From Schmidtea nova (lineage: Eukaryota): a stretch of 64,000 nt of DNA. The translations under genes and the position numbers were made by a program. Below, one piece after another: positions 3,288-60,601 of this stretch. The notes beneath the pieces were generated by a model, which saw only the letters and a program-made list of their open reading frames with translations, did no database searches and was not told the DNA's origin. Numbering within the stretch: position 1 is the first letter of the stretch; every line of letters begins with the position of its first letter. The stretch spans positions 125,736,001-125,800,000 of the forward strand of contig CM097884.1 in NCBI GenBank assembly GCA_044892505.1, read 5' to 3'.

Positions 3288-3520
3288 TAATGATGACTAT
3301 TTTTTTAAACAATACCACAATATTTCGGCACAGCTTTTATCAAGTGTGTAAAGGCTGTACCGAAATATTGTGGTATTGGTTAAAAAAAATTTTTATCTAT
3401 AGTCATCATTATGAGAATTATTGATAATAATAATAAAAAAAGATCAAAGGTGAAAAAAGATAATTATGATATTATTATTATTATCAATAATATTATTATT
3501 AATAGAAAAACGCCAGCTAA
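3288..3520. repeat. Head-to-head palindrome of Penelope family-1 terminal repeat containing hammerhead motifs
   Basis: ...TATTTCGGCACAGCTTTTATCAAGTGTGTA|AAGGCTGTACCGAAATATTGTG... Arms match the 3' UTR of the element at 20789-20951. Confidence 0.75.
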
Positions 3521-16837: not shown

Positions 16838-17219
16838 AAACTTCATCTGGATTGCGATTTGTTGTTAGCGGTCTTGATGGGGATTCGAATTTCAATCCCA
16901 AGCAAGGCTCAGTCGACAGGAAACTGCAAGCTACGATAATAGGTTAATGAGTGCAATTGCATTTCTATATTAATTCGTCATTTGTCTTAAGACGCTCAAA
17001 CTGGTAAAGACCTGAGTGGACAATTCAAATTTAAATGGTATTTCCTCCAGTCAAACAAAGAAGTATATCCAAACAGTAAGTTAGCCGAGAAAGTTGAGGA
17101 AAAAGGAGGAGAAATAAAATTCAATTCAATGAAAAATCCACAACAAATTCTCACAGCTCAATGCTTCGCTACGAATGGAACGCATAACTTCACTTCACCA
17201 GCAATAACTGTCGATGTCA
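16838..17219 (+). CDS. Host multi-Ig gene, Ig-like domain type A copy 2 (exons 16838-16942 and 16992 to the gap)
   Basis: Near-identical to 2613-2994, with the same splice sites. Confidence 0.75.
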
Positions 17220-17427: not shown

Positions 17428-17604
17428 TTTTCACCTTTGATCTTTTTTTATTATTATTATCAATAATTCTCATAATGACTATAGATCAAAATTTTTTTTT
17501 ATAAAAATAACACAATATTTCGGCACAGCCTTTATCAAGTGTGTATAAAGGCTGTGCCGAAATATTGTGTTATTGTTTATAAAAAAATTTTGATCTATAG
17601 TCAT
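17428..17604. repeat. Head-to-head palindrome of Penelope family-1 terminal repeat, paralogous to 3288-3520
   Basis: CGGCACAGCCTTTATCAAGTGTGTA-T-AAAGGCTGTGCCG centre with long inverted arms. Confidence 0.75.
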
Positions 17605-20788: not shown

Positions 20789-20880
20789 AATAAATTTTTT
20801 CATCCAATAAAATCATTATAAAATATTAAAAAAATAATTAAGGCTACTATTTAGGATTAAGTAAATATAACGATAGAAAT

Positions 20881-20915
20881 ACACACTTGATAAAGGCTGT
20901 GCCGAAATATTGTGT
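20881..20915 (+). ncRNA. Minimal type-I hammerhead ribozyme, U3:A8 core variant
   Basis: ACAC-TTGATAA-A-GGC-TGT-GCC-GAAA-TA-TT-GTGT: stem I, stem II and palindromic minimal stem III. Copies near 3320, 4260, 4505, 17515, 17545, 18090, 21368, 21651, 26151 and 30878. Confidence 0.7.
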
Positions 20916-21291
20916 TATTGTTTATAAAAAAAAATTTTGATCTATAGTCATNNNNNNNNNNNNNNNNNNNNNNNNNNNNNNNNNNNNNNNNNNNNNNNNN
21001 NNNNNNNNNNNNNNNNNNNNNNNNNNNNNNNNNNNNNNNNNNNNNNNNNNNNNNNNNNNNNNNNNNNNNNNNNNNNNNNNNNNNNNNNNNNNNNNNNNNN
21101 NNNNNNNNNNNNNNNNNNNNNNNNNNNNNNNNNNNNNNNNNNNNNNNNNNNNNNNNNNNNNNNNNNNNNNNNNNNNNNNNNNNNNNNNNNNNNNNNNNNN
21201 NNNNNNNNNNNNNNNNNNNNNNNNNNNNNNNNNNNNNNNNNNNNNNNNNNNNNNNNNNNNNNNNNNNNNNNNNNNNNNNNNNNNNNNNNNN

Positions 21292-21720
21292 NGATCTTTT
21301 TTTATTATTATTATCAATAATTCTCATAATGACTATAGATCAAAATTTTTTTTTATAAACAATAACACAATATTTCGGCACAGCCTTTATCAAGTGTGTA
21401 TTTCTATCGTTATATTTACTTAATCCTAAATAGTAGCCTTAATTATTTTTTTAATATTTTATAATGATTTTATTGGATGAAAAAATTTATTTTATTTTAA
21501 TTTTTTTGTGCGAATTGAATGTTGATCAATTCGCACAAAAAAAATTAAAATAAAATAAAATAAATTTTTTCATCCAATAAAATCATTATAAAATATTAAA
21601 AAAATAATTAAGGCTACTATTTAGGATTAAGTAAATATAACGATAGAAATACACACTTGATAAAGGCTGTGCCGAAATATTGTGTTATTGTTTATAAAAA
21701 AAAATTTTGATCTATAGTCA
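21292..21720. repeat. Perfect inverted repeat of the Penelope family-1 3' UTR centred near 21525
   Basis: Arms fold about TTGATCAA; each arm carries the hammerhead motif. Confidence 0.75.
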
Positions 21721-25094: not shown

Positions 25095-26899
25095 AAATAA
25101 TGAAATTAAATTAATATCACAATATAAAGTTCTTAATAACTCAACTATACAAAATTACTTTAACTTTTTGGAGGGATATCAAATGTCTTTTGTTTATTGA
25201 AGTACTTGGAGGAAATGGCAATCCTCTAACTCAGATTTAATGTCTTTTATTTGCTAAAGTATTTGGAGGAAATGGATTTTGACAAACTTCTAACTCTAAT
25301 CTTTGGATATCTCTCGGATATTTCTGTATCTGTAATCTTAGAACTTTTTAATTTTTCTATTTCTTTAGGCTATTAACCACTTGTTTGGAAAATCAATTTT
25401 CTTTATTTTCTTTATTATCTTTTCTTCAAATACTCAACAATTCAGTTTAACTTCAAAATTGTAATTGTTTAATATTTCCTAAATTAGATTTTCCACGTTA
25501 CTCGGCTTATTCGCGTTGAGAGATTGAATTTGGGATTTTGTAGATAATTTTTAGTAGTTTCAATATTATATTTTTTTAATCAATTTTTCAAATTCTGAAT
25601 TTAGCTTACTATAGTTTCCTATAGTAAGCTATTTGAATTTGATAATTCAAATTTAACTTAAATTATTTTATTATTTTTAACCTAATAATAAAAGTGAGCG
25701 TTATAAAAAAAATAATGGGGGGTCCCTGGTGACCACAAAGGCACCGTCCATAACAATGACGGCGCTTACTACAACGTACTAGAATAACATTCACTATATA
25801 TATATATATATAGTATTTAATTTTCTATAGTTATTTATTTATTCATGGATATAGATTTTATTTTAAATTTTTAAATTTTGTTTTTCATAATTATTATTAC
25901 AAGTATAATATTAATATATATTAATATAATATTTACAAGTATAATATTAACAATAAAAATAACAATACACACAAGCACCACACATACGTGGACACAAATA
26001 ATTTACAACAAAAGGGGTCACTACCTGCCCAAAACACAATGTATCATAAAATATGACATTTACACCTACCTTAGAAAAGGTGCCGATTATTTGCAATTTT
26101 ACTTTATTAATATCAATAATTCCCATAATGGTAAGACTATAGATCAAATAAACACTTGATAAAGGCTGTGCCGAAATATTGTGTACGTATTTAAAAAAAC
26201 TTTGATCTATAGTCATCATTATGGGAATTATTGATATTAATAATAAAAAAAGATCAAAGGTGAAACAAAAAGATAATTATGATAATTTTTACTTTCTTTA
26301 ATTAGTGAAATAATTCTTTACCTTAACTTATTTTGAACCAAATCACATCAGTTTGACGATCCTTCGACAACGTTTTCTTTGAGGCTTTCTTGTATATCGT
26401 TTAGAAAATAATAATGATTAATTGTTTTTTTGTTCTTTCCTCATGGTTATCTTTCCTACTTACTGCTATTGATCAAATTGCCATGATGATTATTCCCAGA
26501 TGTTTACCAAACTCGGGATTTCTTTAATTAATTAATTTATTAGTGGTTTTATGTTTTAGCATATATTTGGTTTTTCGTGTTCTTCTGTGCTTTTTTAAAG
26601 GAAACCATTCACGTTACACTGTTCCCTGTTATCAATTCCATTCCTGGATCTATTTTTGATCATTAATAATTTATCAATTTTCGAATGTTTGATCTTTGCA
26701 TACAGTCTCATGCACTTTTCATGAATTTATGCGTGCTAAATTATTTATTAATAATGATTTTGTTCCGGGTCAGCTTTACAGTTTCCATTTCAAAATATTT
26801 CTCTTGTAATCAACTTATTTATTTTATGACATTACAAAAATATTATCCCCTTTAATGTTTATACTGACTAAAGTCGACTTGAACTTTTGAAAATTCTAC

Positions 26900-30282: not shown

Positions 30283-31155
30283 TTATTTATATCCAAAGTT
30301 ACTTGCTTTTATTACAAATATTCCCCATTTAAAACTTTTTGGTCTACCGATATGTCTTCAAATTTTTTACTATAAAATTTTTGGAACTCCTAATGTAGAC
30401 TTAAAATGTATCGGAATACAAATTATTTGTTCAAAGATTTTTTCGTTTTGCATTGTTTTCGTTTTTCATTGTTTTTCTGATCCCAATTAATCACTCAAAC
30501 GAATGTATTTGTGCATTATTAAATACAGTATAAAATAATTGTCAAATTTGTACATTTTAAAGGCAATAATAATTTGTGTTAAAAGACCCAATAATTAAAT
30601 TAAAAATTAAACATTATAAAAACAAAGATTTTGTTAATTTTATCTTTTAATTAATAAAAATTTTGTTTGAAAAAAACCATAAATAATTAATTGGCATACA
30701 ATCAAATTTTATTGAGAATTTATATTAAATATTTAACATTAAAAGATAAAATTAACATAATCAAATTAGTAAAATAATAATTATCTTTTTGTTTCACCTT
30801 TGATCTCTTTTAATTTATATCAATAATTTCCATAATTGTATGACTATAGATTAAAGTTTTTTTGGTTTTTAAATACACAATATTTCGGCACAGCCTTTGT
30901 CAAGTTTGTATTTTTAAATACTCACAATCATTTCAACCTATTCTTTTGGCATGTGACAATGCTTTTCTCCTTCAACACCCAAATATTTGTACTTGGAACA
31001 AATTTGACTTCCTAATTTTACGTTTTTTTATCGCTAACCATTTATACTGCATTTTAAAATGTGATACTTGCTTCTCATTCCAACAATCAGGCAAACCATT
31101 TCCTTTTTCTTTTCCAACTGATTGAATGTCCACTAAATTAATCTTTTTGTTTTGA

Positions 31156-38450: not shown

Positions 38451-39404
38451 GGAAACACCAGACAAAAAGTTATTTGTTACTACAACTCATTATAAAATAA
38501 ATATTTTAAAAACCTTCATGTTTTTTAACACTGATTTAAATTTCGTGCGCATTTCTAGAAACAAATATGTACGTATATCAAGAACCATTTATATATTTAT
38601 ATTAAATTAAACTTATTTTCGGGTTTTTTGGTTGTTAATCGTACAAAAATGAAAATTATTGATATAAATAAAAAAAGATCAAAGGCAAAACCAAAAGATA
38701 ATTATGATAATTTATACTATTTATTAAAAGATTTGTAGGGCAAATTATTTAATATCATAATTATCTTTTTTTTTCACCTTTGATCTTTTTTTAATATTAA
38801 TATCAATAATTCTCATAATGTTGATCTATAGTCTTACATTATGGGAATTATTGATAAGTTATTTAATATCATTATAATCACTTAACGCTTTTGACTTTTT
38901 CATTTCTATTTTAGAAATTTGATTTTTTATAGAGTAGATCAAGATCAAGTTTTTGGTACAGCATTTTTTAAATATATATTGAAAAAGACCGTGCCGAAAA
39001 ATTGTGTACTTTTTAAAATGAAATTTGATCTATATTCTTTATAAAAGAAATGAATATTTAACAGATTAAGTATAACCCATTAAAAATGATAGACATTTGT
39101 TTAAATATCAATTAAAATACAATTCTCTGATGCAGTTAATTTCAATTTTTCTTCTTCTATTGTTCTAACTAATATCCAACAACTACTAATAGCAATATTA
39201 ATATCGGTCACAAAGAGTCTGTACGAAGAGTTTTATATTTTGAGCCATTGGAGCAGCAATTTCAACGTTAGATATAAATTAATTATTTTTTCTAATTTAT
39301 TATAATATTAAATCATTTTTATAAAATTTATTTATTACTTATTATAATCAGTAGATAATCTTCAGCATTACAGAGCCACTCACATACATGCTCATATTCT
39401 AGTG

Positions 39405-39787: not shown

Positions 39788-39898
39788 ACTTTAAAATTTC
39801 TGATTGGATAATTATTTTTAGTAAATAGTTGTTTACATAGGTTTTTACTATTGAATAAAGTTTTATTAATATTCTTTTTCTTTAATTGTGAAAATAAA

Positions 39899-40542
39899 CT
39901 GGGTCGGCTTTAGCTGGAAGCGGTGGATGAAAAGAATCCGGGTGCCTCTTGTAAAGGATCATTAAAAATAGAATTTCAGTATCTATTTAATATGTCAAAA
40001 AAAATTTTTAAAAATTTTTTTAAAGAAAATAAATAAATTTTTTTGGAAAAACTACAATCCCACTAGTTTTCAAAGTGTTTAAGAATTGTTTAGTTATTTC
40101 GCAAAAAATATCAATTATTCATGTACAAATTTACTTTGAAATAACGTACTATATTCAGTTTAGTTATTTCGATTAAAAAATTAATGCTATACAAATTTCC
40201 TAAAAATTATTTTAAAAGTCTACCAATTATATTCAGTTTTCAATCTGTTCAATAAGTAGAAACATATTTCGCTAATTAAAAACAACTTAATATTAAAATT
40301 TTATAATAATAAAGTGTTCAGTACATGTTTAGTTATTTTGCATCATTGTACGGTAGGTATTATTTAATTATTTTTATCTTTACTTCTGATTTAGAAGTAA
40401 TTTTTAAAAGTTTTTATTTAAATTTAACATTGCCAATTGAATTACGTTAAGTCCAAATAAACCAATAAAATAATACTCCTACAAAATTGGCGTCTAAAAT
40501 GAGTTTCACACCGGGGCGTTATTATTGCTAGAGCCGGCCCTG
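39899..40542. mobile_element. hAT-type MITE
   Basis: Imperfect 16-bp TIR (CTGGGTCGGCTTTAGC / GCTAGAGCCGGCCCTG) and exact 8-bp TSD AAAATAAA. Confidence 0.85.
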
Positions 40543-40745
40543 AAAATAAATTATAATTATCAGATGAAAACAATTTGTACTCACTATCAGTCTTATTTGG
40601 AAATTTGTAAAATTATTTATTTTAAAATTTATTTTGTATTTTATTCTCATCATCAATTGAAAATTAGTTTTGTCTATAGATGTGGATTTTATTTTATCAA
40701 TTAGTGGTCTTCTCTTTTAATGAGAAGTAATAATATAAATGCATA

Positions 40746-42370
40746 TGTAGTGCCTCCGATAATAAATATTTATAACAATATTTAATTATTTAAATAAGAA
40801 GATTGTTATATAATCGAAATATATCGCGTTTATGTTGAATTTACTGAGTTGGCGTTTTTCTATAATTTAATTATTTATTAAAATAAAATAACTTGTTTCA
40901 ATAACAAGTTATTTTAGAAAGAGATTTTTTCAAAATGCAAGATAATAAAAAGTGGATTTTGAAAAAGCAACAAAATGATAAATAATTTGTATTTTAATAT
41001 AAATATATTTTATCTAATTATTGTAGTTTTTTCAATAACGCTACAATTGGTGTCAGAAGTGGGATAATTGTAGCGTTATTGAAAAAACTACAATAATTAG
41101 ATAAAATAAATTTATATTAAAATACAAATTATTTATCATTTTGTTGCTTTTTGAAAATCCACTTTTTATTATCTTGCATTTTGAAAAAATCTCTTTCTAA
41201 AATAACTTGTTATTAAAACAAGTTATTTAGTTTAATAAATAATTAAATATTGTGATAAATATTTATTATCGGAGGCTCTACAATGGCCCCCGCCGAAGTA
41301 AGCGGAGCGAATGGGGTACTATTGGTGCTGGATGCTGTTGATGTTGGTGCTGTAGATTTTGGGGCTGTAGACTTTGGTGCTATAGATGCGGATGCTGTAA
41401 ATGCTGGTGCTGTAGATTTTGGTGCTGCAGATACTGGTGCAATAGATGCTGGTGCTGTAGATTCTGGTGCAATAGATGCTGGTGCTGCAGATACTGATGC
41501 TGTAAATGCTGGTGCTGTAGATTCTGGTGCAATAGATACTTATGCTGTAAATGCTGGTGCTGTAGATTCTGGTGCTGTTGGTGCTGCAGATACTGGTGCA
41601 ATAGATGCTGGTGCAATAGATGCTGGTGCTGTAGATTCTGGTGCAATAGATGCTGGTGCTGTAGATTCTGGTGCAATAGATGTTGGTGCTGTAGATTCTG
41701 GTGCAATAGATGCTGGTGCAATAGATGCTGGTGCTGATGGTGTTGGTGCTGTAGATTCTGGTGCAATAGATGCTGGTGCTGTTGGTGCTGCAGATACTGA
41801 TGCTGTAAATGCTGGTGCTGTAGATTCTGGTGCAATAGATGCTGGTGATGTTGGTGTTGGTGCTGCAAATACTGGTGCAATAGATGCTGGTGCTGTTGGT
41901 GCTGCAGATACTGGTGCTGTAGATTCTGGTGCAATAGATGCTGTTGCTGTAGATTCTGTTGCAATAGATGCTGTTACTGTAGATTCTGGTGCAATAGATT
42001 CTGGTGCAATAGATGCTGGTGCTGCAGATACTGATGCTGTAAATGCTGGTGCTGTGGATGTAAATGTTAGTGCTGTTGGTGCTGTAGGTACTAGTGCTGT
42101 TGGTATTATTTCAGTAGATGCTGGTGCTGTTGGTGTTGATACTGGTGCTGTCACTTCTAACACCAATTGTAGCATTATTGAAAAAACTACAATAATTAGA
42201 TAAAATATATTTATATTAAAATACAAATTATTTTTCATTTTTGTTGCTTTTTGAAAATCTACTTTTCATTATCTTGCATTTTGAAAATATTTCTTTCTAA
42301 AATAACAAGTTATTTTATTTTAATAAATAATTAAAAATTGTGATAAATATTTATTATCGGAGGCACTACA
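40746..42370. mobile_element. Composite LTR insertion: LTR(+)+PBS joined tail-to-tail to a complete non-autonomous LTR element(-)
   Basis: LTR(+) 40746-41045, PBS TGGTGTCAGAAGTGGGAT 41048-41065, LTR(-) 41069-41282, repeat interior, PBS(-) near 42150-42165, LTR(-) 42168-42370. GCATA flanks both outer ends. Confidence 0.85.
41300..42150 (-). repeat. Codon-periodic tandem-repeat interior encoding an Ala/Pro/Ser/Thr-rich ORF (starts 42238, premature stop near 41540)
   Basis: Units such as GCACCAGCATCTATT / GCACCAGAATCTACA translate as APASIAPESTAP. Confidence 0.8.
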
Positions 42371-42749
42371 GCATATAATAATGTTTTTCCAAAATCTCTT
42401 TTAAAAAAACTTTTAAAAAAATGTTTTCCATAAAACTTTATTTTAATATATAAAATTAGCAAGAATAGTTATAAAATATATGCTATGAATTTGGTGTTAT
42501 ATTTTTATGGTTATATCAGAAATCTATAACTGATTAAAAATATAATAATAATACCTTTATGTGATTCCATCGATTAAATAAATAATAATTAAATAAGATG
42601 AAAATAATTATGCCAAAACTTTATTAAATTAAATTAAATACTTCTCTCAATTCTTAATATTTAAACAACATATATTTTCAAATATAATTAATGCATATAA
42701 TCAATTCATTAATTATATCACATCCTTCTCGCTGGCAACCGAACGGTAC

Positions 42750-45700
42750 TTAGGTTTCTGATTTCTCGTCGTCCGTAATGGGTACCTTCTCATCGGTTTT
42801 AAATTGGTCTTCGGTTCCAAATACTAGTGTTGGTGTTAGCTTTTCTCTATAGGAACCTACCTCGTCATTTACTGCTTTTATTTGATTATAATTTCTTCTT
42901 ATTCTTTTTTTAGCTTTGTCACTATATAATACACAGGTCCATTTATCCATTATTTATTCTATTATGAATGGCCCTATATACTTCTTCTCGAAACCCCTTC
43001 TGTCTTCATTCTTTATCATTACCTTATCTCCTACTATCAATTCTTTGTGACATCGATTCTGATTATATCTTGCGACGATACACTCTCTTTGTCTATCCAT
43101 ATTTTCCCTTACTTTCTTGTGAATATCTGATAAATTTAGTTGCAGCTGTTGGACGTAATCGTTAGTCTTGAAAATGTCTCGTATTAACCTTTATTGCTGA
43201 TATGGGTAATCTTACTTGATTTCCAAATGCTATTTCATATGGTGAATAATTCGTTGACTTTTGCATTGTAGTTCTTAATCCGAACTCTATTACCGGTAAT
43301 ACTACACTCCAGTCTTTGCTCTTCTTCTCTTCTAACACCGCTGCAATCATACTTTTTGCAGTTTCAAATAGTCCTTCTACCAGTCCATCACTCTGTGGGT
43401 AGTAAAGTGAGGTAAATGTCTTCCTAATTCCTAATACTTTACAGTATTCGGCAAACAATCTTGATTGGAAATTACTTCCACAATCTGAGTGTATTTGTTC
43501 TGGTGCTCCAAACTTTGAAATCCACTGCGACCACACCGCTTCTGCAATATTCTCTGTCTCGATATTTCTCATTGGTATTAAACTTATATATTTCGAAAAT
43601 TAATCGATTATATCCAGTATATACCTAAATCCTTTCTGTGTTGTCTTGAACAGTCCTGTTATGTCGATTGCTATTATCTGAAAAGGTTTTTCTCTAATTA
43701 TGCTTTGAAATGCTGCCCTTGTTCTACCGTTTCTGTTTTTGTTATGTGCGCATTCTTGACATTTTCCTATTACTTCTGATATATCAGACTCCATATTAGG
43801 CCAATAATATTCATTCTTTATTATTCGATAAGTTTTTTCAATTCCGGAATGTCCTAGAAAACTGTGAAATTGTATTATTAATTTCTTCCTCTTTAATTTC
43901 GGGAGTATCAATCTGTATTCGTTATCCTCCTGGATATAAAGTAGATCACCCTTTATCCTTAGTATTTTTCTGTGTGCCCATATTGTTTGTAATTCTCTGA
44001 TGCCTCTTCTTATCTCTTCTACGTTTCTGTCATTTTTAGAATCTGAACTTTTCATCCTTTTAATTATGGTTTGTATGTCGACATCATCGTCTTGTCCCCA
44101 ATCATGTTCATGTACTTTCACATAACATCGTCGTTTTCTGTCCTTTTTACATCTATTAATTCATCGTATACTTTTACGTTTCGACACTTCATCGGTTCTT
44201 TATGCTTAAGTAAGCATTGTTCACATGGAGGTAACCTGGAAATCGCATCAGCATTTATGTGTTCTTCGCCCTTTCTATATTCGACAACCATGTCGTAGAC
44301 TTCTAGTTCAGCTCTCCAAACACAGTATTGTGATGTGTTTGGATTATCCCATTTCAATAACCATTTCAGCGCTTGGTGGTCCGTTCTCACTAAAAACTTT
44401 GATCCCATCAAATAATGTTTTAATTTCAGCACAAACGTATATATTGCCAATAGCTCTTTTCTTGTTATACAATATTTTCTCTGACTCTTACTCATGGTTT
44501 TTGAGGCATAACACAAAACTCTTTCTTCTCCATTTTGTCTCTGTGACAAAACGGCTCCCATATTATTGTACGAAGCGTCCGTGTCCAGTATATATTCGCC
44601 TTTCTTATTTGGCAAGGCCAACACTGGTGGTGTTGACAGTCTGCTTTTAAGTTCGTAAAATGCTCCTTTTCTATCTTCATTCCACACAAAATTATTTTCA
44701 CTCTTTAACATTGAACTCAATTTTTCTGATGTCGCTGCATAATTTTTTATAAATCTACTGTAATAATTGCAAAATCCTAAGAAGGTCTGCAATTCTTTTT
44801 TACATGTTGGCATTGTCCATGATCGTATACTCTCAATTTTCTCTGGGTCAGTTTTTACCCCATTCTCATTGATGACATGTCCTAAATAATTAACTTCTGT
44901 TTTTAAAAATGAACACTTAGCTGGTGATAATTTCAGTCCTGACTCTTTAATTCGGCGTAATACAGTGTTCAATCTTTGATTATGTTCTTCGATGGTTCTC
45001 CCAAATATAAGAACATCATCAAAATATACGACACACTTAATCCAATTTTCATTTCTCAAGACCATGTTCATAAGCTTCTGAAAAGTGGCTGGTGCGGAAC
45101 ACAATCCAAATGGCATTCGTGTAAATTCGAATTGTCCATACTTTGTGCTAAAAGCTGCCTTCTCTATGTCACCTTCTTTTATTGGTACTTGGTAGTAACC
45201 ACTTGTTAGATCTAATGTAGAGAAAACCTTTGCTCCTCCAAGTGTATCATAAAGATCTTTCACAGCTGGTATTGGAAAAATTGGTCTTGCCGTCTTTGCT
45301 TTCAGTGCCCTATAATCGACACACATTCTAATATCACTATTCTTTTTTCTTACGACTACAATCGGAAAATTCCACGCTGACTTGCTCGGTCTCACAATTC
45401 CAGCTCTTAATAAATCTTGTACCATGTGGTCAACCTCTTCCTCCATACCTAATGGTATCTTTCTCGGTTTAAAAGCAATTGGCCGGGCGTTTCCAGTGTC
45501 AATTTCATGATGTACTGATGTAATTTTCCCAATATCCATTTTATATTTACTAAAAACATCCTTATTTTCTTCTATTGTTTTCATTAACTATTTTCTTTCG
45601 CTATATTTAATAGTACGATCTAAAGAATCTTCTATACTTTGTAAAATATTATCGACTGCGGTGATTTCTCTTCGCTGTTCTGATGATGACATACTTTCAA

Positions 45701-45941
45701 TAGTAGCCTTTTCTGCCGTTTCATCGTAAAATCTTTCTAAAAAACCTAAAGTTATTCCTGCATGCAACTGTTTAATACCATCATCCATCATATCGATTTT
45801 TACTATTACAAATCCTTCATCAACTTTAAGCACGTAATCACTTATCAAAATTTCCCTCTCTGCCATTTTGACTCTTTCACCATTAAACACACAACTTTGA
45901 TTAAGATTCTCTAATCTATTTTTCTGCTTATCTATTGACAT
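42750..45941 (-). pseudogene. pol: Gypsy-3 Pol (RT, RNase H, integrase); no protease motif found
   Basis: MCVDYRAL, MPFGLCSAPATFQK, YFDD, LDTDAS, HSFLGH...CQEC, AIDITG, HSDCGSNF, DGLVE. Closely related to Gypsy-2 Pol. Confidence 0.92.
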
Positions 45942-46377
45942 TTCTGATAAAATACTCTCCTACTTTTTCAATCTGTACTTTACTTGATACAATAACTCTA
46001 ATAATCCTGATAACCGTCTCCCCAAGTCTCGTCTCTCCCTTCAACCGTATTACGACTCTCTAATACAGTTGGGATAAAATCGATCATGATAAATGATTTT
46101 CTATTGAAAAACGCCAATTTTTTTTTCATCCAAACTTTTTCATGCCACATCAGAGTTTCCGTTGAAGTCATTTGAGATTTTTCATTAGCTGATACGATTA
46201 CATTTGATGGAAAGGAACCTGATGGAATTGTTTTTCGTCGAAAAATCACATAAGCTGGTAATTTGCCGCTATTTGTTTGCCGTAGTATTTACATGCTTGT
46301 CACCTTCAGAATCGGTCTTTGATCCTCTCGTTGAACCTTCTTCTTCCTCTTTATCTTGTTCTTGAAAATATCTGAAT

Positions 46378-47302
46378 TTATTCCTCGTGTAAATATCTAG
46401 CGAAATGACCAACACCACATTCGTAACATTTAATCGCATTCATCCTATTTGTACCTATTCTGCAATTCGCTGCTATATGTCTCCTTTTTCCACATTTATA
46501 GCACGTCCTTGTATCAATGTTTCCACTGTCATCTTTTTTGAGGCAAAATCTTGCTATATGCCCTTCGTTGTTACATTTAAAACATGTAACCTTTTGCTGA
46601 TAGGAAGAAATGTCTTCTCTTACTTCTCTCTGATTTTTATTCGGTTTTCTCAATTGTTCTTTCCTTAATTCTTCAATAATCTTGTTCAACCTGTCAATTT
46701 CTCTTTTTAAGAAATTTATTGTCCTTTCGTCCGTTGTAGCCAGTTTCCTAACTTGATTATACTCGTTTTCCTTTTCTTTTACGCCCACGTGCTCCATTTT
46801 AATCTCTTCTATAGCTTCTTCCAACGTTTTTTGCTCTCTGATCTTCAAGGCTACCGAGAGAGTTTGGTTTCTCACACCTTCTATAAAGGCATGTATCATA
46901 ATTTTTTCTTTTTCTCCTTCGTAACTTAGACATCGCATTCTTACTCTTTGCAAAATCTACCACAGTCTCATCTCTTTCCTGTCTGGTGTCGTCGAGGATA
47001 TCTATAATTATTGAGGTCTTTGACCTTTTAACTTCTACGATTTTGATAATCTTTTCTTCGTATCAGTCTATAGTTCTGGTTGTGCTAATGTCTCCTAAGC
47101 ATTCGATCTCTTTTACTATTTCTTCGTCAAAGTATTTTAAAAATACTTTAATTTTTTCTTCTTCCGTTACCAAGTTGTGTTTGGCAAACTGATCAATAAA
47201 ACTTTTGACGAGAATTAAATGATCTTCAATTTTAACGCTGGTTCCTCGCTTCTTAAATGTAATCAATTTTGATAACTTATCTTTAAATAAGTATTCCTGC
47301 AA
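46378..47302 (-). pseudogene. gag: Gypsy-3 Gag with three CCHC knuckles, frameshifted
   Basis: CFKCNNEGHIARFC, CYKCGKRRHIAANC, CYECGVGH. Confidence 0.85.
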
Positions 47303-47976
47303 GCATTCTTTTTCAGTTCGTAACGCAATGTTATATTTTTATGGTTATATCTGAAATCTATAACTGATTAAAAATATAATAATAATACCTTTATGTGATT
47401 CCAACGATTAAATAAATAATAATTAAATAAGATAACAATAATTATTCCAAAACTTTATTAAATTAAATTCAATTAAATACTTCTCTCAACTCTTAATATT
47501 TAAACAACATATATTTTCAAATATAATTAATGCATATAATCAATTCATTAATTATATCACACAGAGGGCCTGGTTTCCAAGTTTAATAAATTGATCCAAA
47601 ATATTTTTGTGAAAAGTTTGAGAACCACTGCATTAATACGTGTATAATTATCTTATTTTTATTTAAAAACAATGTGAATGTATTTGATAAATAATAATTA
47701 TAAATTTTATTTTTCAAACTATGGAAAAAAGCCTGAAATAATATATTTAATTTTATATTCATTTTTATTTTTAATTTTTGTAGTGCCTCCGTCATATATA
47801 TAATTATTTATATTTTAAATAATTTAATATATTATATATACATATGTATATTAAATTAAATTATTGAGATATATAGAAAGGTTGTTTTAATTAACAAGAG
47901 AGATAGAAAAGGAGTTTTTTGAAAATTAAATAACAAGTAGAATTATAATCGATAACGCAGAAGAATTCGAATTTTT

Positions 47977-48060
47977 AGCCAAGAAGCATTTTAACCAAGA
48001 AGCATTTTAACCAAGAAGCATTTTTAACCAAGAAGCATTTTAACCAAGAAGCATTTAACC
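47977..48060. repeat. About 17-bp tandem repeat (AACCAAGAAGCATTTT) x5, downstream of an LTR-like start TGTAGTGCCTCCG at 47779
   Basis: Direct observation. Confidence 0.85.
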
Positions 48061-52800: not shown

Positions 52801-53283
52801 TTAAACAAAATTAAATAATAAATCGAGATATTTTTCATCAATTAATTCATTATTAATTAATGAATTAATATAATTTTTAATTTCATTTACTTGATTAAAA
52901 TAATCCAATGTTTTAATTCCTAATATTACAACTTTTCCACTTGAAAAAATATTAATACAAATAGGGTTATAATTTATTAATCTTAAAGCTGGAAATATTT
53001 CGGGTTCGTACCAGCACTCTGTTTTATTTTGCAATTCGTATAAATTTATGGATTTACCCATATCCAATGTTATAGTGATCGATTGAATTTTTAAATCTGA
53101 AATTTTATATTTCAAATCATCTGGTTTTAACGGTTGCTTACAACCCATTACACGACATTTTCCCGATCTGAAAAATAAAATAGGGTACTTTCCACTCCTA
53201 TCTATAACTTGCTGGGGTTTCCCAACAGGAAATAACATGTTTGGAACTAAACACTTGCCCATATAATTAATATTACTTATCAT
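52801..53283 (-). CDS. Polinton-encoded divergent TATA-binding-protein (TBP)-like protein, about 160 aa
   Basis: Both TBP repeats are visible: ILFFRSGKCRVMGCK, LKIQSIT, YEPEIFPAL and INIFSSGKVVILGIK versus TBP ALIFSSGKMVCTGAK, FKIQNMV, YEPELFPGL and LIFVSGKVVLTGAK. Confidence 0.85.
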   Translation of the reverse strand: MISNINYMGKCLVPNMLFPVGKPQQVIDRSGKYPILFFRSGKCRVMGCKQPLKPDDLKYKISDLKIQSITITLDMGKSINLYELQNKTECWYEPEIFPALRLINYNPICINIFSSGKVVILGIKTLDYFNQVNEIKNYINSLINNELIDEKYLDLLFNFV

Positions 53284-53339
53284 TTTTATAAATTGAATAA
53301 ATATAAACAATATTAAATTAATTAATTAATTAATTAAAA

Positions 53340-53963
53340 ATGGAATTAAGAAATGATGCAGTTTATCAAATAGTGGGCCCAAGTGGTAGTGGAAAAACAT
53401 TATTTGTATGTAAATTGTTGCAATCAAAAATGTTTAAATCAAAATTCAATAAAATTTACTGGCATCGGGGAGCTGATGAAGAACATGGACTGACTCAAGA
53501 TCAATTCTGCAAATTAAAAATGACAATTATAAAAGGGTTTGATAAAAACTGGTCATCTAGATTACGACAAGGCGATGTTATAATTATCGATGATTTGTAC
53601 CAAGAAGCAAATAAAGAAAAAGATTTTAATAATTTATTCACAAAAATTAGTAGACATTTAGGAGTTACTGTAATTTTCATTACTCAAAATTTATTTCATC
53701 AAGGTGGTAGTCACAGAACTCGTAATCTAAATGTTCAATACTTGGTTATATTCAAAAACCCAAGAGATGCTACAATTATTGATTTTCTAGCAAGACAAGC
53801 TTACCCTAATGATAGGAAATTCTTAATTAATTCATTTCAAGATGCTACTAAAGTTCCTCATGGATATTTATTCTTTGATTTTACTCAACAATGTCCTGAT
53901 GATTTACGTATCCGAACGGATATATTTAACGAAAATGGAGTCACGGTTTATAAACAAAATTGA
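53340..53963 (+). CDS. A32/FtsK-like genome-packaging ATPase
   Basis: Walker A GPSGSGKT, Walker B IIIDD, SRH motif, ITQNLF. Confidence 0.95.
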   Translation: MELRNDAVYQIVGPSGSGKTLFVCKLLQSKMFKSKFNKIYWHRGADEEHGLTQDQFCKLKMTIIKGFDKNWSSRLRQGDVIIIDDLYQEANKEKDFNNLFTKISRHLGVTVIFITQNLFHQGGSHRTRNLNVQYLVIFKNPRDATIIDFLARQAYPNDRKFLINSFQDATKVPHGYLFFDFTQQCPDDLRIRTDIFNENGVTVYKQN

Positions 53964-53984
53964 AAATAAATAAAAGAAATAATA

Positions 53985-54170
53985 ATGTCATTTAAAAAAG
54001 TAATTGACAAGTTAAATAAAGAAGCTATTCAAAAAGCTGATCAAAAACTACTTAAAAAAGTTGATCAAAAACTTCTTAAAAAAGTTGATCGAAAATCTAA
54101 ATTAGTTAAAAAAGTTACCAAAAAGATTGGTAAAAGAAAGAAACAAGTAAAGAAGTGGATAAAATTATAA
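53985..54170 (+). CDS. Small Lys-rich protein, possible DNA-condensing core protein
   Basis: 61 aa, very basic, with KKVDQKLL repeats, in tight gene spacing. Confidence 0.6.
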   Translation: MSFKKVIDKLNKEAIQKADQKLLKKVDQKLLKKVDRKSKLVKKVTKKIGKRKKQVKKWIKL

Positions 54171-54200
54171 GCGAAATAAATATACACAAAAATTTTAATC

Positions 54201-54530
54201 ATGAAATTTGAACGTAGTTTACCGTATTTTAATGCTTTGGTTAAAGCTCCAACAAATAAGCGAATGATAATTTTACAAGCTTTCCCACCCTTTGTTATTG
54301 ATGATTTACTTGAAATCGTTTTTAATATTGTTCATGGTAATGTAAATATTAGTAGATCAAAGAAAATTGAACTACAAAAACATAAAAATTCGCTTTTATC
54401 ATTAGTGAATACCAAAAATAGAAATCTTATGCGAAAAATAATATATAAACAAAAGGGTGGGTTTCTCGGTACATTAATTCCAATAGTATTATCAGCAATA
54501 AGCGCAATCTCATCTTTAAGAAATGGGTAA
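54201..54530 (+). CDS. Conserved Polinton protein with a C-terminal amphipathic (cupiennin-like) peptide
   Basis: EIVFNIVHGNV...QKGG|FLGTLIPIVLSAISAISSLRNG. Confidence 0.8.
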   Translation: MKFERSLPYFNALVKAPTNKRMIILQAFPPFVIDDLLEIVFNIVHGNVNISRSKKIELQKHKNSLLSLVNTKNRNLMRKIIYKQKGGFLGTLIPIVLSAISAISSLRNG

Positions 54531-54592
54531 TAAAATGTCTGAACCGAATAAACATAATATAGATTTAAATATTCTAACAAATTGTTGTATTA

Positions 54593-55678
54593 ATGAAGAA
54601 AATCATGAAGAATATAAAAACGATATGGACAAACCCAAAAGATCCCGATGGTTTTGGTTCAGTCAAAAAATTGGCAAAAAGAATAAAAAGTTCAAAGAAT
54701 GAAACTCAGAAATGGTTATCTGATCAATTGGCATATAGTTTAAATAAACCAATGTTGAAAAGATTTCCTACACGCAAATATAAAACTTTTGGGGGTAACG
54801 ATTTATGGCAAATGGATTTGATGGAAATGATTCCTTATTCTAAAATTAACAAGGGTTACAAATATATTTTGACTTGTATTGATGTTTTTAGCCGTTATGC
54901 ACGAGCTATTCCAACAAAAACTAAATCTGCTAATGAAATGGCTGAGGCTATTGAATCTTTATTTAAAGATGGGAAGCCACGTAATTTACAAACTGATTTG
55001 GGTAAGAAATTAAATTTTTAAAAATTAATTAATTTTAATTTAGGAAAAGAGTTTTATAACAGCAAAGTAAAAGAAGTGATCAAAGGAATCAATCATTATT
55101 CTGTATTTTCTCAATTCAAAGCTGCTCATGTTGAAAGATTTAATAGAACTTTAAGAGATCGTTTGAAAAAGTATTTTGTGTATCAAGGTAACAAAACGTG
55201 GATAAATGTTTTACCGAAAATTATTTCCAGTTACAATCGATCACCGCATTCGGGATTAAATAGAATGAAACCTGTCGATGTATATTCAAATAATAATTTT
55301 GACGGATGGATAAAAGATAGATTAAAATCAATTAATAAAAAACCGAAATATAAAGTAGGCGATTATGTGAGAATGAGTAAAATCAGTGCTTCTCCCTTCA
55401 TCAAAAATTTTGATAGTAATTGGAGTGATGAAGTATATCAAATCTCAAATGTTGATACTAATCAAAATCCTGTCATGTATACTATTTCCGATCATGAAAA
55501 CAATGTAATCGAGGGTAAATTCTACGAACAAGAACTTCAAGTTATTCCAGCTCCCACAGTTTTTAGAATTCAAAAGATTTTAAAAACCAAAACTGATGGG
55601 AAATATAAACAATATTACGTTAAATGGCATGGCTATGAAACTCCAAGTTGGATATCTGAAAAACAATTGATTAAATAA
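54593..55678 (+). CDS. int: Polinton retroviral-type integrase with C-terminal chromodomain; spliced (intron 55002-55043)
   Basis: WQMDL, CIDVFSRY, LQTDLG|KEFYN restored by splicing, VERFNRTL, YYVKWHGY..SWI. Confidence 0.93.
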
Positions 55679-55683
55679 ATATT

Positions 55684-56721
55684 ATGAAAGAAAACCAGTT
55701 TTATATGATTTTGCCTAGCAATGCATGTCCTCTTATTTATCCTAATAATGAAGCTAGTAATTTTAATGTAGAATTTCAAAATCCGATTTATTTAAATAGT
55801 AATGACGATTGGGAAGTTGCTTTGATTGATTTTACTTTTGTGTATAATTTGTTCCCGTATTATAGTAATTCTTTTATTCAAATTGAAACTAAAAGAGAAA
55901 TTCAAGAAATTAGTTATTTGAGAATTAATAATCAAAATAAAACAATTCAAGTTATAGTTTCTCAACCTAGTTCAGACACTGATGTATTTATTGAAAAATA
56001 TAATTATTTAGTGATTGTTTGCCCACATGTTCCATTTAAAATTACATTTCCAGATCTTGAACATGCAAAAAGTTTTGGATTGGAAAATATATCAATTACA
56101 AGTGAAAATGACCATTGTCGTTTAAAATTACCAAAATTCACGAATGATAATAGTCTTGAACAATTTGGAATTTTAATAAATTATGACATTAAAACTGTTA
56201 ATGATTATTATTTTCAAGATGAATTATTCATAACGTCATTACCGGAATTGCAAGGATATTTAATGAAAATTAATCCATCTCCATTTAAAGAATTGAAACT
56301 TGTCAATAATGAATTGGTTAAAATTATTCTTCAGGATAATATTTCAAAAATTACTTTTGATTCAAATTTAACCAAATCTCTGGGTCTACAGAAACAAACA
56401 TATACTGATACAGAAATAATTGGTGTAAAAATCCCCAAAATTTTACAACTTCATCAGCAAATGTTCATTTACAGCAACATTATTGAACCAGTAACTGTTG
56501 GAGATGTACGAGTTCCCCTCCTTAAATCAATTTGGATCAAGAAATATGACCAAGGCGAAGTTGTACAAATTGAAATAAAGAATCCAATGTATTTGCCGAT
56601 TTCAACATCAACTATAAACAACATTGAAATCAATATTCGTGATGACAGTGGAAAATTAATTAAATTTTCAAAAGATACAAAGACTCATTTGACTCTACAT
56701 TTTCGTAAAATAAATGAATAA
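55684..56721 (+). CDS. Minor capsid protein (penton/PX)
   Basis: FYMILPSNA...WEVAL at the N-terminus; FIYSNIIEP..VGDVRVPLL...INIRDDSG...LHFRK at the C-terminus. Confidence 0.88.
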   Translation: MKENQFYMILPSNACPLIYPNNEASNFNVEFQNPIYLNSNDDWEVALIDFTFVYNLFPYYSNSFIQIETKREIQEISYLRINNQNKTIQVIVSQPSSDTDVFIEKYNYLVIVCPHVPFKITFPDLEHAKSFGLENISITSENDHCRLKLPKFTNDNSLEQFGILINYDIKTVNDYYFQDELFITSLPELQGYLMKINPSPFKELKLVNNELVKIILQDNISKITFDSNLTKSLGLQKQTYTDTEIIGVKIPKILQLHQQMFIYSNIIEPVTVGDVRVPLLKSIWIKKYDQGEVVQIEIKNPMYLPISTSTINNIEINIRDDSGKLIKFSKDTKTHLTLHFRKINE

Positions 56722-57121
56722 TCCAGATATTATCAGTTTCTATAGCAACAGCCAATCAGGTGGAGAATTACCGTATTTTGTAGGTAAACAATATGGAACT
56801 GGTTGGTTGAAAACGATAGGTAGATTTGCATTACCAATTCTAAGACGTATTGGAAATTTTGGTATGAAAACTGCCAATGACGTGTTAAATAATAATTCAA
56901 AGATTTTACCTGCACTAAAATCCAATGCTATTTCTGAAATTAAAGACTCATTGCCCGATGTGATTCATCATTTGCCACAAGTAATTAGTAAAGTGACTGA
57001 TGTGTTTAACGAAAATAAAACTGAAAATAAACAAAATGGCGGAATTCTTAAACGAAAAAGAAATATGAAGAAACATATAAACAAAAGAATGAAAGGATAT
57101 GGAACAATTTTTGAAAAATGA
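56714..57121 (+). CDS. Conserved Polinton virion accessory protein (PZ-like) with an amphipathic helix
   Basis: FYSNSQSGGELPYFVGKQYGTG-WLKTIGRFALPILRRIG; lies between the penton and hexon genes. Confidence 0.75.
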   Translation: MNNPDIISFYSNSQSGGELPYFVGKQYGTGWLKTIGRFALPILRRIGNFGMKTANDVLNNNSKILPALKSNAISEIKDSLPDVIHHLPQVISKVTDVFNENKTENKQNGGILKRKRNMKKHINKRMKGYGTIFEK

Positions 57122-58344
57122 TTAGTGCAAAATCTGAATTATGTCTTTTTGATAGACCATCTCCACAAGCAGTAATTGAACATGGTGCATTTGAAGATAT
57201 TTACCCAACAAATTCAATTACAGATGCTGGGACATCATCTATTCAATTTTACATCAATGGATCTCAAACTGAATATTTAGATTTGAACGATACTTTACTA
57301 TCTCTTCAGGTCAAAGTTGTAAACAAATCGGGTGAAAATTTAGGATTGGATGCTGATGTTACTCCCAACAATTTCTTTTTCCAAACTCTTTTTAAAGAAG
57401 CCGAATTAATTTTCAATTCTACTAAAGTTGAAGGGGGAAATGATACATTTACACACAAAGCCATGATTGAAACTATTCTCAACTACAATAGTGATACAAA
57501 ACACACATCTTTAACTCCAATGGGATACAATGACCATGATCTTACTAGAAAAGCATGGATTGCAAAATCAAAACCATTTTCAATTTGTTCTCCATTACAT
57601 TTCGATTTCATGGAACAACCCAAGTATTTATTACCAGGTGTTAGTGTTCAAATTAAATTGACGAGATCAAATTCATCCAATAGTTTAACATGTACAAAAA
57701 TTGAGCCTATAATTGAATTATTAGAGGCAAAATTAATGGTTAGAAGAGTTCGAGTAGAACCATCAGTTTATGCTGGTCATCAAATTGGACTTGGTACAAG
57801 AAATGCAATTTATCCAATAAGAAATAAGGAAGTTGTAGAATTTTCATTGCCAATGGGTTCTTCTTCATTTTATAAGGAACAAATCTTTGGAGATAGACGA
57901 TTACCAAACTTTATTCTTGTAGCATTTCAAGGAAATAAAAAACATAGTGGTTCTTTTACTGAAACTTATTCTATTTACGATCATTTTAATGTCAAATCAT
58001 TAACTTTATCGAAAGGAAGTGATTATCGTGAAAAATATTCTCAAGATTTTGAAAATGATATTTGTAGTACTAGTTATATGCAATCTATTGTCCGTAACCT
58101 TGGTTACCTGAATAAGAGTATGAATTGCGGTATTACTTTATCAGATTGGAAAAGCAAATATCCTTTTTTCACCTTCGTTTTGGCTCCAGATTTTGACCTA
58201 AATCAAAGTCAATTACCTCAACAAGGTAATCTAAGACTTGATATTAAATTTGGTACACCATTGACTGAATCAGTTTCTGTAATTGTATATGGAGTTTTTG
58301 AAAAGGAATTACAAATTACAGCTAATCGAACAATACTGGTTTGA
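57118..58344 (+). CDS. Major capsid protein (double jelly-roll, hexon/PY)
   Basis: KSELCLF..P.PQ..IE, IQFYI.G..EYLDL..T.L, QPKYLLPGV...IKLTR, FDL..., GNLRLDIKF. 408 aa, intact. Confidence 0.93.
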   Translation: MISAKSELCLFDRPSPQAVIEHGAFEDIYPTNSITDAGTSSIQFYINGSQTEYLDLNDTLLSLQVKVVNKSGENLGLDADVTPNNFFFQTLFKEAELIFNSTKVEGGNDTFTHKAMIETILNYNSDTKHTSLTPMGYNDHDLTRKAWIAKSKPFSICSPLHFDFMEQPKYLLPGVSVQIKLTRSNSSNSLTCTKIEPIIELLEAKLMVRRVRVEPSVYAGHQIGLGTRNAIYPIRNKEVVEFSLPMGSSSFYKEQIFGDRRLPNFILVAFQGNKKHSGSFTETYSIYDHFNVKSLTLSKGSDYREKYSQDFENDICSTSYMQSIVRNLGYLNKSMNCGITLSDWKSKYPFFTFVLAPDFDLNQSQLPQQGNLRLDIKFGTPLTESVSVIVYGVFEKELQITANRTILV

Positions 58345-58385
58345 TTAAATGGTTATAAACTAATTTGACAAAAATTTATCATCAA

Positions 58386-58764
58386 ATGAAGTAAGATTTA
58401 TTTTTAATAATTAAATTTTATTGATTTTAGTTCAATTCAGGTAGATCAGATTGCTAGAAAATTGATTGGATCGGAATTTCTAGGAGTTTTTCCTCTAGAT
58501 AAAATACCGTATATAGATGTGAATAAAGCATTGATTGTCAATACTCAATCATCAAACCTCAAAGGTGAACATTGGCTTGCAATTTATAATAAACCCGATA
58601 AAATATACGTGTTTGATCCAATGGGATTTTATTATCCACCGATATTATTGAAAAAATTATCGTCAATGTTAAAACCAATAGAATATAACAGAATTCGATA
58701 TCAAAATCCAATGACAAAAACCTGTGGGCAACATTGTTTAGCTTGGCTAAAATATATGAAATAA
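58386..58764 (+). CDS. Adenain-like cysteine protease; spliced (intron 58391-58430)
   Basis: ATG AA|GTAAG...TTAG|T gives MNSIQVDQI...FLGVFPLD, with GEHW, FDPMG and QNPMTKTCGQHC catalytic motifs. Confidence 0.92.
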
Positions 58765-59115
58765 AATTTTTATTATAAAACGACTTTTATTATAAAACGA
58801 CTTTTTCTATTTATGGAATTTTTATGTTTGAATTTGTTAAATTATAGTTGAAAATAATATTGTAAAAATATTTAATTAATTTTAATATTGTAAAAATATT
58901 TAATTAATTACATATTGTAAAATATTTAATTTTAAATTACATTAATTTAAAATATTTAATTAAATTACATTAATTTAAAATATTTAATTAAATTACATTA
59001 ATTTAAAAATAATTTCGTTTAAATAAACGACATTTTTAACAACACGCAAACTTAAGTAAGTAAGTTTAATTTTTTATGAATATTTATTAATTTTTCTTTT
59101 CAGATTTTTGAAATA

Positions 59116-59361
59116 ATGCCAATGAAATTTATATCAAATAATATTATGAAAAAGGAAATTATACCAAGCAATATTATGACAAAGGAGATTATACCAAGCA
59201 ATATTATGACAATGACAAAGGAAATTATACCAAGCAATATTATGACAAAGGAGATTATACCAAGCAATATTATGACAATGACAAAGAAATTATACCAAGC
59301 AATATTATGACAATGACAAAGAAAATTATACCAAGAAATATTATGACAACGAAACTTAAAT
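59116..59361 (+). other. Exon-like tandem repeat encoding (KEIIPSNIMT[MT])n, with one frameshift
   Basis: 30/36-bp units between the acceptor at 59102-59103 and donor GTAAG at 59362. Confidence 0.4.
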
Positions 59362-59439
59362 GTAAGTATTTATATATTGATGAAACTATTATTATCAATT
59401 AGATTTTTTATATAATTAATAGATTTTTATAAGAATTTA

Positions 59440-59700
59440 ATTAATTTTTATAATAAATATATTTTTACATTTTATGAACTTAATTAATTTTTATAATAAA
59501 TATATTTTTACATTTTATGAACTTAATTAATTTTTATAATAAATATATTTTTACATTTTATGAACTTAATTAATTTTTATAATAAATATATTTTTACATT
59601 ATATGATTTTAATTAATTTTTATAATAAATATATTTTTACATTTTATGAATTTAATTAATTTTTATAATAAATATATTTTATAAATTTATATATTTTAAA
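59440..59700. repeat. About 45-bp almost pure-AT tandem array; shorter AT array at 58860-59010
   Basis: TTAATTAATTTTTATAATAAATATATTTTTACATTTTATGAAC repeated 5-6 times. Confidence 0.85.
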
Positions 59701-59763
59701 ATATATTTAATGTAAAAATCAATTATTAAAAATAAATAAAGAACAAATAAATTAAACAAGAGT

Positions 59764-60292
59764 TTATTCATGAAAATCAGTAATTTTCCATATAGGCTTT
59801 ATCACGTTTTCTGTTTGTTTAAATCCTTGTAAGATAATTTGAATTTGATACATTGAATTATCATCTAATTTGCCTAAATCTGTTTCTTTTTTGCAGTTCA
59901 TATATGTGAATTCCTCGTTGAATTGAATATCTTTATTTATTAGCATTAAAATTTCAGATAGATTCTTTCTATCAGTTTCCCCGATTTTTCCAACCTGAAT
60001 ATTGAATTGACATTGTTTCAATGTAACAGGTTCCTGTAAATAATATTAATTAGATTTTAATAATTTTTAATTAATTACTTTAAATGAATATTTGATTGGA
60101 TATTTCAAATACTCCATCGAGTATTGCATGAATTGAACTGGTGAATTCAATGCCAAATTAGATGAAGAAATAGGATTTTCCTCAAGTATAATCTTCATTA
60201 TTTCTTGTTTTGTCATTCTTTTCGATTCTAGAAAAAATAAATTAAAAAATAATCATTTAAAATTAATTAATCTTACTTTTCAGTTGATACAT
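59764..60292 (-). CDS. Three-exon Polinton protein (144 aa), putative OB-fold ssDNA-binding protein
   Basis: Exons 60292-60277, 60227-60079 and 60033-59764 splice in frame (49- and 45-bp GT-AG introns). C-terminus YQIQIILQGF...IKPIWKI. Confidence 0.65.
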
Positions 60293-60601
60293 TTTTTAAT
60301 GATTATTTTAATTTTATAAGTCGTTTATATAGTAATTTTTAAATTATTTTGACCAATCATAATCAATAAATATATATTACGATATTTTGAATGTGTGTAT
60401 ACACACTTGATATACATCATTGTTATTTTATCATAATTTTTATCATAATATTTTTATCATAATTTTTATCATAATATTTTTATCATAATTTTTTATCATT
60501 ATTTTGATCATTATTTTTTTATATTATTTTTAAAATTTATAGGCAATTTATATCAAAAATATTGCAACTCCACAATTCATGATGTAAAATGCCATGAAAA
60601 A

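Follow-up and report, generated by a model that had tools for sequence, protein, structure and literature searches.

How does an LTR retrotransposon come to leave an insertion with three LTRs, two of which face each other U5 to U5 across a PBS and three further bases, inside a single target-site duplication? Such an insertion lies at 40746-42370 of the 64,000-nucleotide stretch of Schmidtea nova DNA analysed here, which we call the window. To judge from its sequence, an origin from reverse-transcription intermediates is quite probable, and the reading that we favour, with a probability of roughly 0.58, is that within a single reverse-transcription complex a dead-end plus-strand strong-stop DNA was joined to the complex's own cDNA at its unprocessed right end. 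The element would, on balance, be a small non-autonomous LTR retrotransposon with a tRNA-Leu primer, and the insertion a one-off product of it.

Three LTRs share one target-site duplication

Along the plus strand, the insertion consists of GCATA, LTR-A in plus orientation, AT, an 18-mer, AAT, a minus-strand unit, and GCATA again. Read in its own sense, the minus-strand unit runs from LTR-C through AT, a PBS-like 14-mer and an interior of 885 bp, the last part of which is a G-rich tract, to LTR-B. The individual features are as follows.

40741-40745, plus strand: left copy of the target-site duplication, GCATA (0.28% by chance)
40746-41045, plus strand: LTR-A, 300 bp, TG...CA, U3 end outward; 97.2% identical to LTR-B outside the extra block
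40781-40877, plus strand: A-specific block, 73 bp flanked by a 12-bp direct repeat with copies at 40781 and 40866
41046-41047, plus strand: AT spacer from LTR-A to the PBS; the same spacer is found after LTR-C
41048-41065, plus strand: 18-nt complement of a tRNA-Leu 3' end including CCA, TGGTGTCAGAAGTGGGAT
41066-41068, plus strand: AAT junction, the reverse complement of the spacer AT followed by a T (about 4% by chance for the three bases)
41069-41282, minus strand: LTR-B, 214 bp; 3' LTR of the unit, U5 end toward the junction
41283-41298, minus strand: short G-rich polypurine tract (PPT), 4 nt before LTR-B
41283-42167, minus strand: internal region of the unit, 885 bp
41315-42151, minus strand: 15-bp tandem array of the interior, GC 47% against 18% in the LTR
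42152-42165, minus strand: the unit's own PBS, 14 nt with one mismatch, followed by the array and without the last 4 nt of the 18-mer
42168-42370, minus strand: LTR-C, 203 bp; 5' LTR of the unit, U3 end outward
42371-42375, plus strand: right copy of the target-site duplication, GCATA

This anatomy and its coordinates, first given in a preliminary description of the locus, hold on re-examination of the sequence. LTR-A had been called about 86 bp longer than both other LTRs, which is right for LTR-B (86 bp) but not for LTR-C (97 bp). The minus-strand element had also been called complete; its LTRs, PPT and interior are present, but its own PBS is limited to 14 nt with one mismatch.

The polarity of the LTRs can be read from the tract preceding LTR-B and from the PBS following LTR-A and LTR-C; accordingly, both outer ends of the insertion are U3 ends. 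LTR-A starts with TGTAG at 40746, as does the PPT-proximal end of LTR-B, and CTACA is common to the U3 and U5 ends of the LTRs. GCATA adjoins LTR-A and LTR-C, not LTR-B, and the left and right flanks are unrelated sequences joined by this exact 5-bp duplication; among 200,000 random position pairs in this window, 5-mers matched in 0.28%. The clean ends and the one 5-bp duplication point to concerted integration, and together with the exact TG termini they bear out the earlier proposal that the whole was inserted in one integrase-type event, by way of its two U3 ends. LTR-A and LTR-B form arms of 168 nt at 97% identity around a 17-nt loop, and the junction folds with a z-score of -13.9 relative to 200 shuffles. 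Rfam returned four matches over 40746-42400, all below the gathering score, the best of them being the hairpin itself. A BLAST search of the window with 1 kb from either flank turned up no uninterrupted copy of the empty site.

Several known arrangements were tried and rejected. Nesting of the unit from LTR-C to LTR-B within an A-type element would be at odds with the absence of a duplication around that unit and of any plus-strand remainder to its right. DIRS-like elements have inverted terminal repeats, a tyrosine recombinase and an internal complementary region, and make no target-site duplication; assignment to them was rejected on the 5-bp duplication, the TG...CA LTRs, the tRNA PBS, the PPT and the absence of a coding domain. 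The 47-bp terminal inverted match that might suggest a MITE is simply the two U3 ends.

The position of the break at the PBS, not the length of the PBS, is informative

The 18-mer occurs once in the window, where 0.01 occurrences are expected, and a published capture probe for tRNA-Leu(CAA) begins with the same 18 nt, base 19 being the first to differ (PMC7997516). The matching tRNA end was found in metagenome contigs, at a minimum of at least 119 loci; ARAGORN called tRNAs in 101 of the loci listed, and among these listed matches 81 of 106 calls were Leu (67 CAG, 12 CAA and 2 AAG). The probe identity and the Leu majority of the ARAGORN calls point to a tRNA-Leu of isoacceptor CAA or CAG as the primer. 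The next tRNA base beyond the end of the 18-mer is presumably the T-loop A at position 58. The window holds no tRNA genes, and a tRNA T-loop pattern had no matches in viral contigs.

The preliminary description had leaned on the match being exactly 18 nt long. That length is true here (18/18), yet it is not specific. As a control we examined every exact occurrence of the 18-mer in viral and prokaryotic-genome contigs, 36 in number. CA lay at most 4 nt upstream in 26 of the 36, as expected for an LTR end, and none of the 36 continued into tRNA sequence, the next base being C in 12, A in 11, T in 7 and G in 6. An 18-nt match followed by a stop is thus normal for ordinary elements with this PBS and its length is not diagnostic; by the same token, an ordinary copy could have supplied LTR-A and its PBS as its 5' end. 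Fold-back was seen in none of the 36, in which the longest stem was 5 compared with 42 here. LTR-end plus tRNA-Leu PBS sequences occur in many prokaryotic genome bins (loci L123-L155), where they are likely eukaryotic host contamination; the U5 end of one of them (L137) looks similar to ours, in an alignment over 40 AT-rich bases only.

The informative fact is the position of the break. It falls exactly at the U5 end of LTR-B and within 3 nt of the PBS end, which has a probability of 0.45% if breaks are uniform over the 885-bp interior and of 0.08% over 5 kb, and the three expected bases AAT would be found there by chance at about 4%; these are rough figures, calculated after the structure was seen. 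In HIV-1, plus-strand synthesis is reported to end once 18 tRNA bases have been copied, and a ribo-A to be left on the minus strand (PMC11241228). An 18-nt stop combined with a retained ribo-A predicts CA-AT-T at an unprocessed right end, and LTR-B shows exactly that. The earlier suggestion that the junction fits the meeting of an unprocessed right end with the end of a plus-strand strong-stop DNA is therefore upheld, or else AAT arose from an untemplated A plus fold-back.

The two PBSs differ. The one after LTR-A matches at 18 of 18 positions; the one after LTR-C matches at 13 of 14 and then diverges, so the last 4 nt after LTR-A cannot have been copied from LTR-C as it stands. The short PBS after LTR-C may have arisen after insertion.

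The extra block of LTR-A is likely a later insertion

With the LTR-A block left aside, LTR-A and LTR-B differ at 6 of 214 positions (97.2% identity), LTR-A and LTR-C at 9 of 202 (95.5%), and LTR-B and LTR-C at 10 of 201 (95.0%) as well as by 3 indels. LTR-A is thus closest to LTR-B outside the block, a closeness that gene conversion between the two arms could have caused. Private substitutions number 2 in A, 3 in B and 7 in C, which fits equal ages (P = 0.20); LTR-C holds 7 of the 12, plus 2 indels.

The extra 85 bp of LTR-A consists of 73 bp bounded by a 12-bp direct repeat, and a stretch similar to the block lies at 3502-3569 on the minus strand (90% over 68 bp, 94% over 52 bp). This look-alike lacks LTR sequence to its left, abuts another repeat to its right, and is bounded near the block's own ends. 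With no LTR beside it, it is not a long-LTR remnant, as far as one copy shows. The simpler reading of the sequence is that the block is likely a later insertion with a 12-bp duplication; its loss between the 12-bp direct repeats in the lineage of B and C is possible, as both lack the 85-bp extra and share two substitutions relative to A. The preliminary description had concluded from its length that LTR-A came from another template. This conclusion is not supported, in view of the 12-bp repeat bounds, the non-LTR look-alike and the small number of private substitutions in A, the fewest of the three, and once the block is read as a later insertion, co-packaged different RNAs are no longer needed. 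If any of the LTRs came from a second template, LTR-C may be a more likely candidate than LTR-A, on these substitution counts.

The unit has features of a small non-autonomous element

The unit from LTR-C to LTR-B has the features of TRIMs and other non-autonomous elements: two direct TG...CA LTRs, a short PBS, a PPT with a short G-run, and an 885-bp interior without gag or pol. A target-site duplication does not lie directly outside its two LTRs. The interior is a 15-bp array of about 50 units, in which 42 of 43 copies of a GCACCA motif lie in one frame. The element-sense frame is rich in Pro, Thr, Ser and Ala and has one stop; one antisense frame has none. Antisense to the interior, on the plus strand (41283-42203), an ATG beside LTR-B begins an open frame of 306 codons with Gly/Ala/Val/Asp repeats, which is probably a by-product of the codon-phased array.

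Pfam gave no family for the 208-aa sense frame of the interior, and the Atlas search with the interior frame gave 0.83 at best, with none at 0.9 or more; neither resource yielded a parent gene. Speculatively, and by analogy with the LTR-mediated retrocopies described in PMC5131818, the interior may be a captured piece of a mucin-like mRNA. Capture of an mRNA with a switch back inside the PBS would explain the short PBS. The frame-keeping of the array would also be explicable by slippage of an NCA-type repeat.

As to relatives, two family patterns had 0 and 0 matches in viral contigs. Neither the start of this LTR nor the 18-mer was found, by eye, in any of three coding gypsy elements that might act as helpers (about 4.8-9.3, 11-15.8 and 42.5-47.6 kb). 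A diverged relative of the same LTR family lies at 47779-48060 on the plus strand, with 13 identical terminal bases and an alignment score of 76 compared with 40 +/- 7 for shuffles. It is cut off by a 16-bp tandem array (47973-48060), and no U5 end or PBS was seen in it.

A single reverse-transcription complex could yield the structure

We propose the following course of events. A tRNA-Leu would prime the minus strand, and the first plus strand, begun at the PPT, would copy the LTR, AT and 18 nt of the primer and then stop, giving LTR-A and its PBS. Removal of the primer would leave its terminal A on the minus strand. The strong-stop DNA would then pair over 14 nt only; with its four 3' bases unpaired it could template LTR-C, yet would not be extended, and would become a dead-end strand. 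It is the short PBS of the unit, in this account, that would leave the strong-stop DNA stranded. Its 3' end would become linked to the same cDNA at the right end, still unprocessed, so that the plus strand of the window would read as the strong-stop strand followed by the minus strand. The resulting duplex would have a U3 end on each side, both ending in CTACA as U5 does, and integrase would insert it in the normal way. Later drift would account for 1-3.5% change per LTR and for the short insertion into LTR-A. Derivation from one complex requires that AATTGTAG not be the natural sequence that follows a full 18-nt PBS in copies of the family.

In Ty1 and Ty3, the tRNA-extended first plus strand is described as displaced and accumulating as a dead-end product (PMC5371799), and by analogy such a strand would be the source of a free LTR plus PBS in the same particle. 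The preliminary description had the two DNAs ligated or end-joined. A joined junction does fit, but ligation is one of three routes that give identical letters: run-off of reverse transcriptase at CA-AT-T followed by a jump, ligation into a hairpin, or fold-back priming. Because all three yield the same sequence, we do not rank them firmly. Reverse transcriptases, that of Tf1 included, are reported to be able to move in vitro to the 3' ends of acceptors once they have made an untemplated addition, and the clamp activity reported there requires C or G in the 2-nt overlap (PMC3035444). A clamp-type jump is not favoured because the junction is all A/T, so a blunt jump or ligation would be needed; for either within a particle, we found no paper. 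Self-priming of strong-stop DNA has been documented for the minus strand (PMC6088434).

Alternative explanations

A related account would draw the strong-stop DNA from a second, long-LTR template, a co-packaged RNA or second cDNA, and have it end-joined to a full cDNA. Intermolecular second-strand transfer has been argued for in HIV-1 (PMC5651808), LTR-B and LTR-C do share the lack of the 85-bp block and two substitutions, and the block may have been lost in their lineage between its direct repeats. We nevertheless consider a second template unlikely, since private substitutions are fewest in LTR-A (2, compared with 3 and 7) and the look-alike at 3502-3569, bounded near the block ends and with LTR-free flanks, fits an insertion into LTR-A. 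Rearrangement after insertion, in which a two-LTR insertion acquires its own 5' LTR and PBS a second time, inverted, or in which opposite insertions lose their middle, has in its favour that TGTAG at both LTR ends offers 5 nt of microhomology for template switching in replication or repair, that the GCATA duplication would be kept, and that the three LTRs are nearly equidistant, as if LTR-A had been copied locally; double insertions at one site are known (10.1101/158386). It is distinctly unlikely all the same: the PBS of LTR-C must then have had 18 nt and been shortened later, nothing would explain a turn-round so close to the PBS end, at most 3 nt away (0.45% or less), AAT before LTR-B is not flank sequence, and LTR-A is closer to LTR-B than to LTR-C, its supposed template.

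An error of assembly or library, by a fold-back chimera or a mis-join in a gapped short-read assembly, is a concern in a window with 13 N-gaps, many of them adjoining repeats, since palindromes are difficult to assemble. The arms, however, differ at 6 of 214 positions as well as by indels, where a fold-back chimera would give identical arms; the unrelated flanks share the exact 5-bp duplication (0.28% by chance); and the sequence is gap-free from 29854 to 51033, with the nearest gaps more than 8 kb away. We hold such an error to be very unlikely. A fraction of 0.36-0.45 of 318 words sampled from 39800-43200 occurred in four sequencing runs of one study, as word matches that say nothing on the junction. 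Scarcely to be credited is a course in which integrase joined the processed U5 end of LTR-B into another cDNA 3 nt past its PBS, leaving free U3 ends to insert later. Autointegration with inversion is described as abundant for some elements (PMC7197481), and joining of this kind leaves CA directly on target DNA, so that AAT could be target; but AAT is just what the unprocessed end of the element itself reads (4% by chance), a target next to the PBS end is a further coincidence, and concerted autointegration consumes both ends.

Comparison with known systems

The dead-end product of Ty1 and Ty3 and the plus-strand strong-stop DNA of retroviruses resemble the left part of the insertion, each being described as an LTR plus a copy of the primer tRNA 3' end, with a fixed stop and as a free displaced strand (PMC5371799, PMC11241228). 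In the same sources they are unintegrated intermediates, with 12 nt of tRNA in the Ty model and 18 nt in HIV-1, whereas here the strand is apparently fused to cDNA and chromosomal. Junctions of 2-LTR circles in FIV and HIV-1 likewise keep an unprocessed U5 end with primer-derived bases, but they are U5-to-U3, unintegrated and furnished with a sense PBS from the same LTR, as opposed to U5-to-U5 and integrated here (PMC3292463). In aberrant one-ended integration of HIV-1, an LTR end is also joined to further viral DNA in either orientation, and the aberrant end usually has long host duplications or deletions, in contrast to the two clean ends and 5-bp duplication of our insertion (PMC5041404). 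One-ended integration is marked by one end without a short duplication; here both TG termini are intact and duplication-flanked.

Cassandra TRIMs offer three LTRs in one 5-bp target-site duplication with a short non-coding interior, as here; their internal LTRs each lie between PPT and PBS, head-to-tail, while our insertion has one inverted LTR, no second interior and U3 outer ends (PMC4079214). Looking for a Cassandra-type arrangement, we found LTR-B followed by ATT, an antisense PBS and inverted LTR-A, and no LTR with a PPT upstream and a sense PBS downstream. Template-switch complexes of Triticeae, reportedly treated by Sabot and Schulman in 2007, are likewise three-LTR elements. The ta-TRIMs of taeniid cestodes have TG...CA LTRs of about 200 bp, a tRNA-Leu PBS, a PPT, a short gene-free interior and a 4-5-bp duplication, as here, a likeness of features alone and not of sequence, and the interior here is a codon-phased tandem array (PMC4558846). 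LTR-mediated retrocopies share with the insertion the layout of LTR, PBS, PPT and gene-free interior (PMC5131818); they are defined by an interior that stems from a host mRNA and by microsimilarity at the two switch points. For the integrated U5-PBS-U5 form itself, a full-text search whose coverage left most subscription and older virology outside found no paper. Abnormal strand-transfer products of retroviruses are described in the older virology literature.

The surrounding window

The window is AT-rich (GC 21-39% per 2 kb) and crowded with mobile elements, with RT-RNase H and RT-RNase H-integrase frames among them, and its repeats are plainly of eukaryotic character. In a homologue search with the RT next to the insertion, the best match reached 69%. 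A gypsy-type element at 42495-47561 on the minus strand, 124 bp from the insertion, has LTRs of about 230 bp at 95% identity; the 5-mers outside its two ends differ from each other, and its 5' LTR is followed by a motif other than the tRNA-Leu PBS. The right flank of the insertion enters its 3' LTR at 42495. A G-run like that before LTR-B precedes the 3' LTR of the gypsy element at about 15.6 kb.

Further away, a 716-aa RT frame (18638-20788) is Penelope-like by reading of its translation. A dispersed palindromic repeat family, found beside many gaps (3300-3500, 4219-4620, 17428-18300, 20700-21720, 26146-26300, 30738-30916 and 38636-38831), flanks this frame, which suggests hairpin-type terminal repeats. 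A Polinton/Maverick-like cluster at 52801-63575 has packaging ATPase, integrase, capsid-like and DNA polymerase B frames by reading of translations, and a TBP-like gene (52801-53325, PF00352) that is its sole confirmed domain. A 1.39-kb direct duplication at 97.7% identity (1610-2994 and 15833-17219), which includes a host-like exon and ends at gaps in both copies, is either a segmental duplication or an uncollapsed haplotype.

Implications

If real, this one genomic copy keeps three steps known mainly from retroviruses and yeast Ty particles, in heritable form: the stop after 18 tRNA bases, the retention of the last primer base, and the acceptance of two U3 ends by integrase. Its weight is modest, as a single dead copy known from assembled sequence alone. 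It supplies a signature that can be mined in any assembled genome, namely an LTR, a PBS, 0-3 nt and an inverted LTR within an outer 4-6-bp duplication. LTR finders would miss or misdate copies of the U5-PBS-U5 type.

It is conceivable, though doubtful, that U3/U3 insertions with an inverted LTR and PBS form a recurrent class of by-products, favoured wherever the PBS is too short for strong-stop extension. Were this so, copies of the class would be misfiled as terminal-inverted-repeat DNA transposons, and would amount to a family-by-family record of where the plus strand stops on its tRNA and how the primer is cleaved. An LTR promoter placed before a long hairpin, here with 168-bp arms, would then make each such copy a self-generated small-RNA trigger against its own family.
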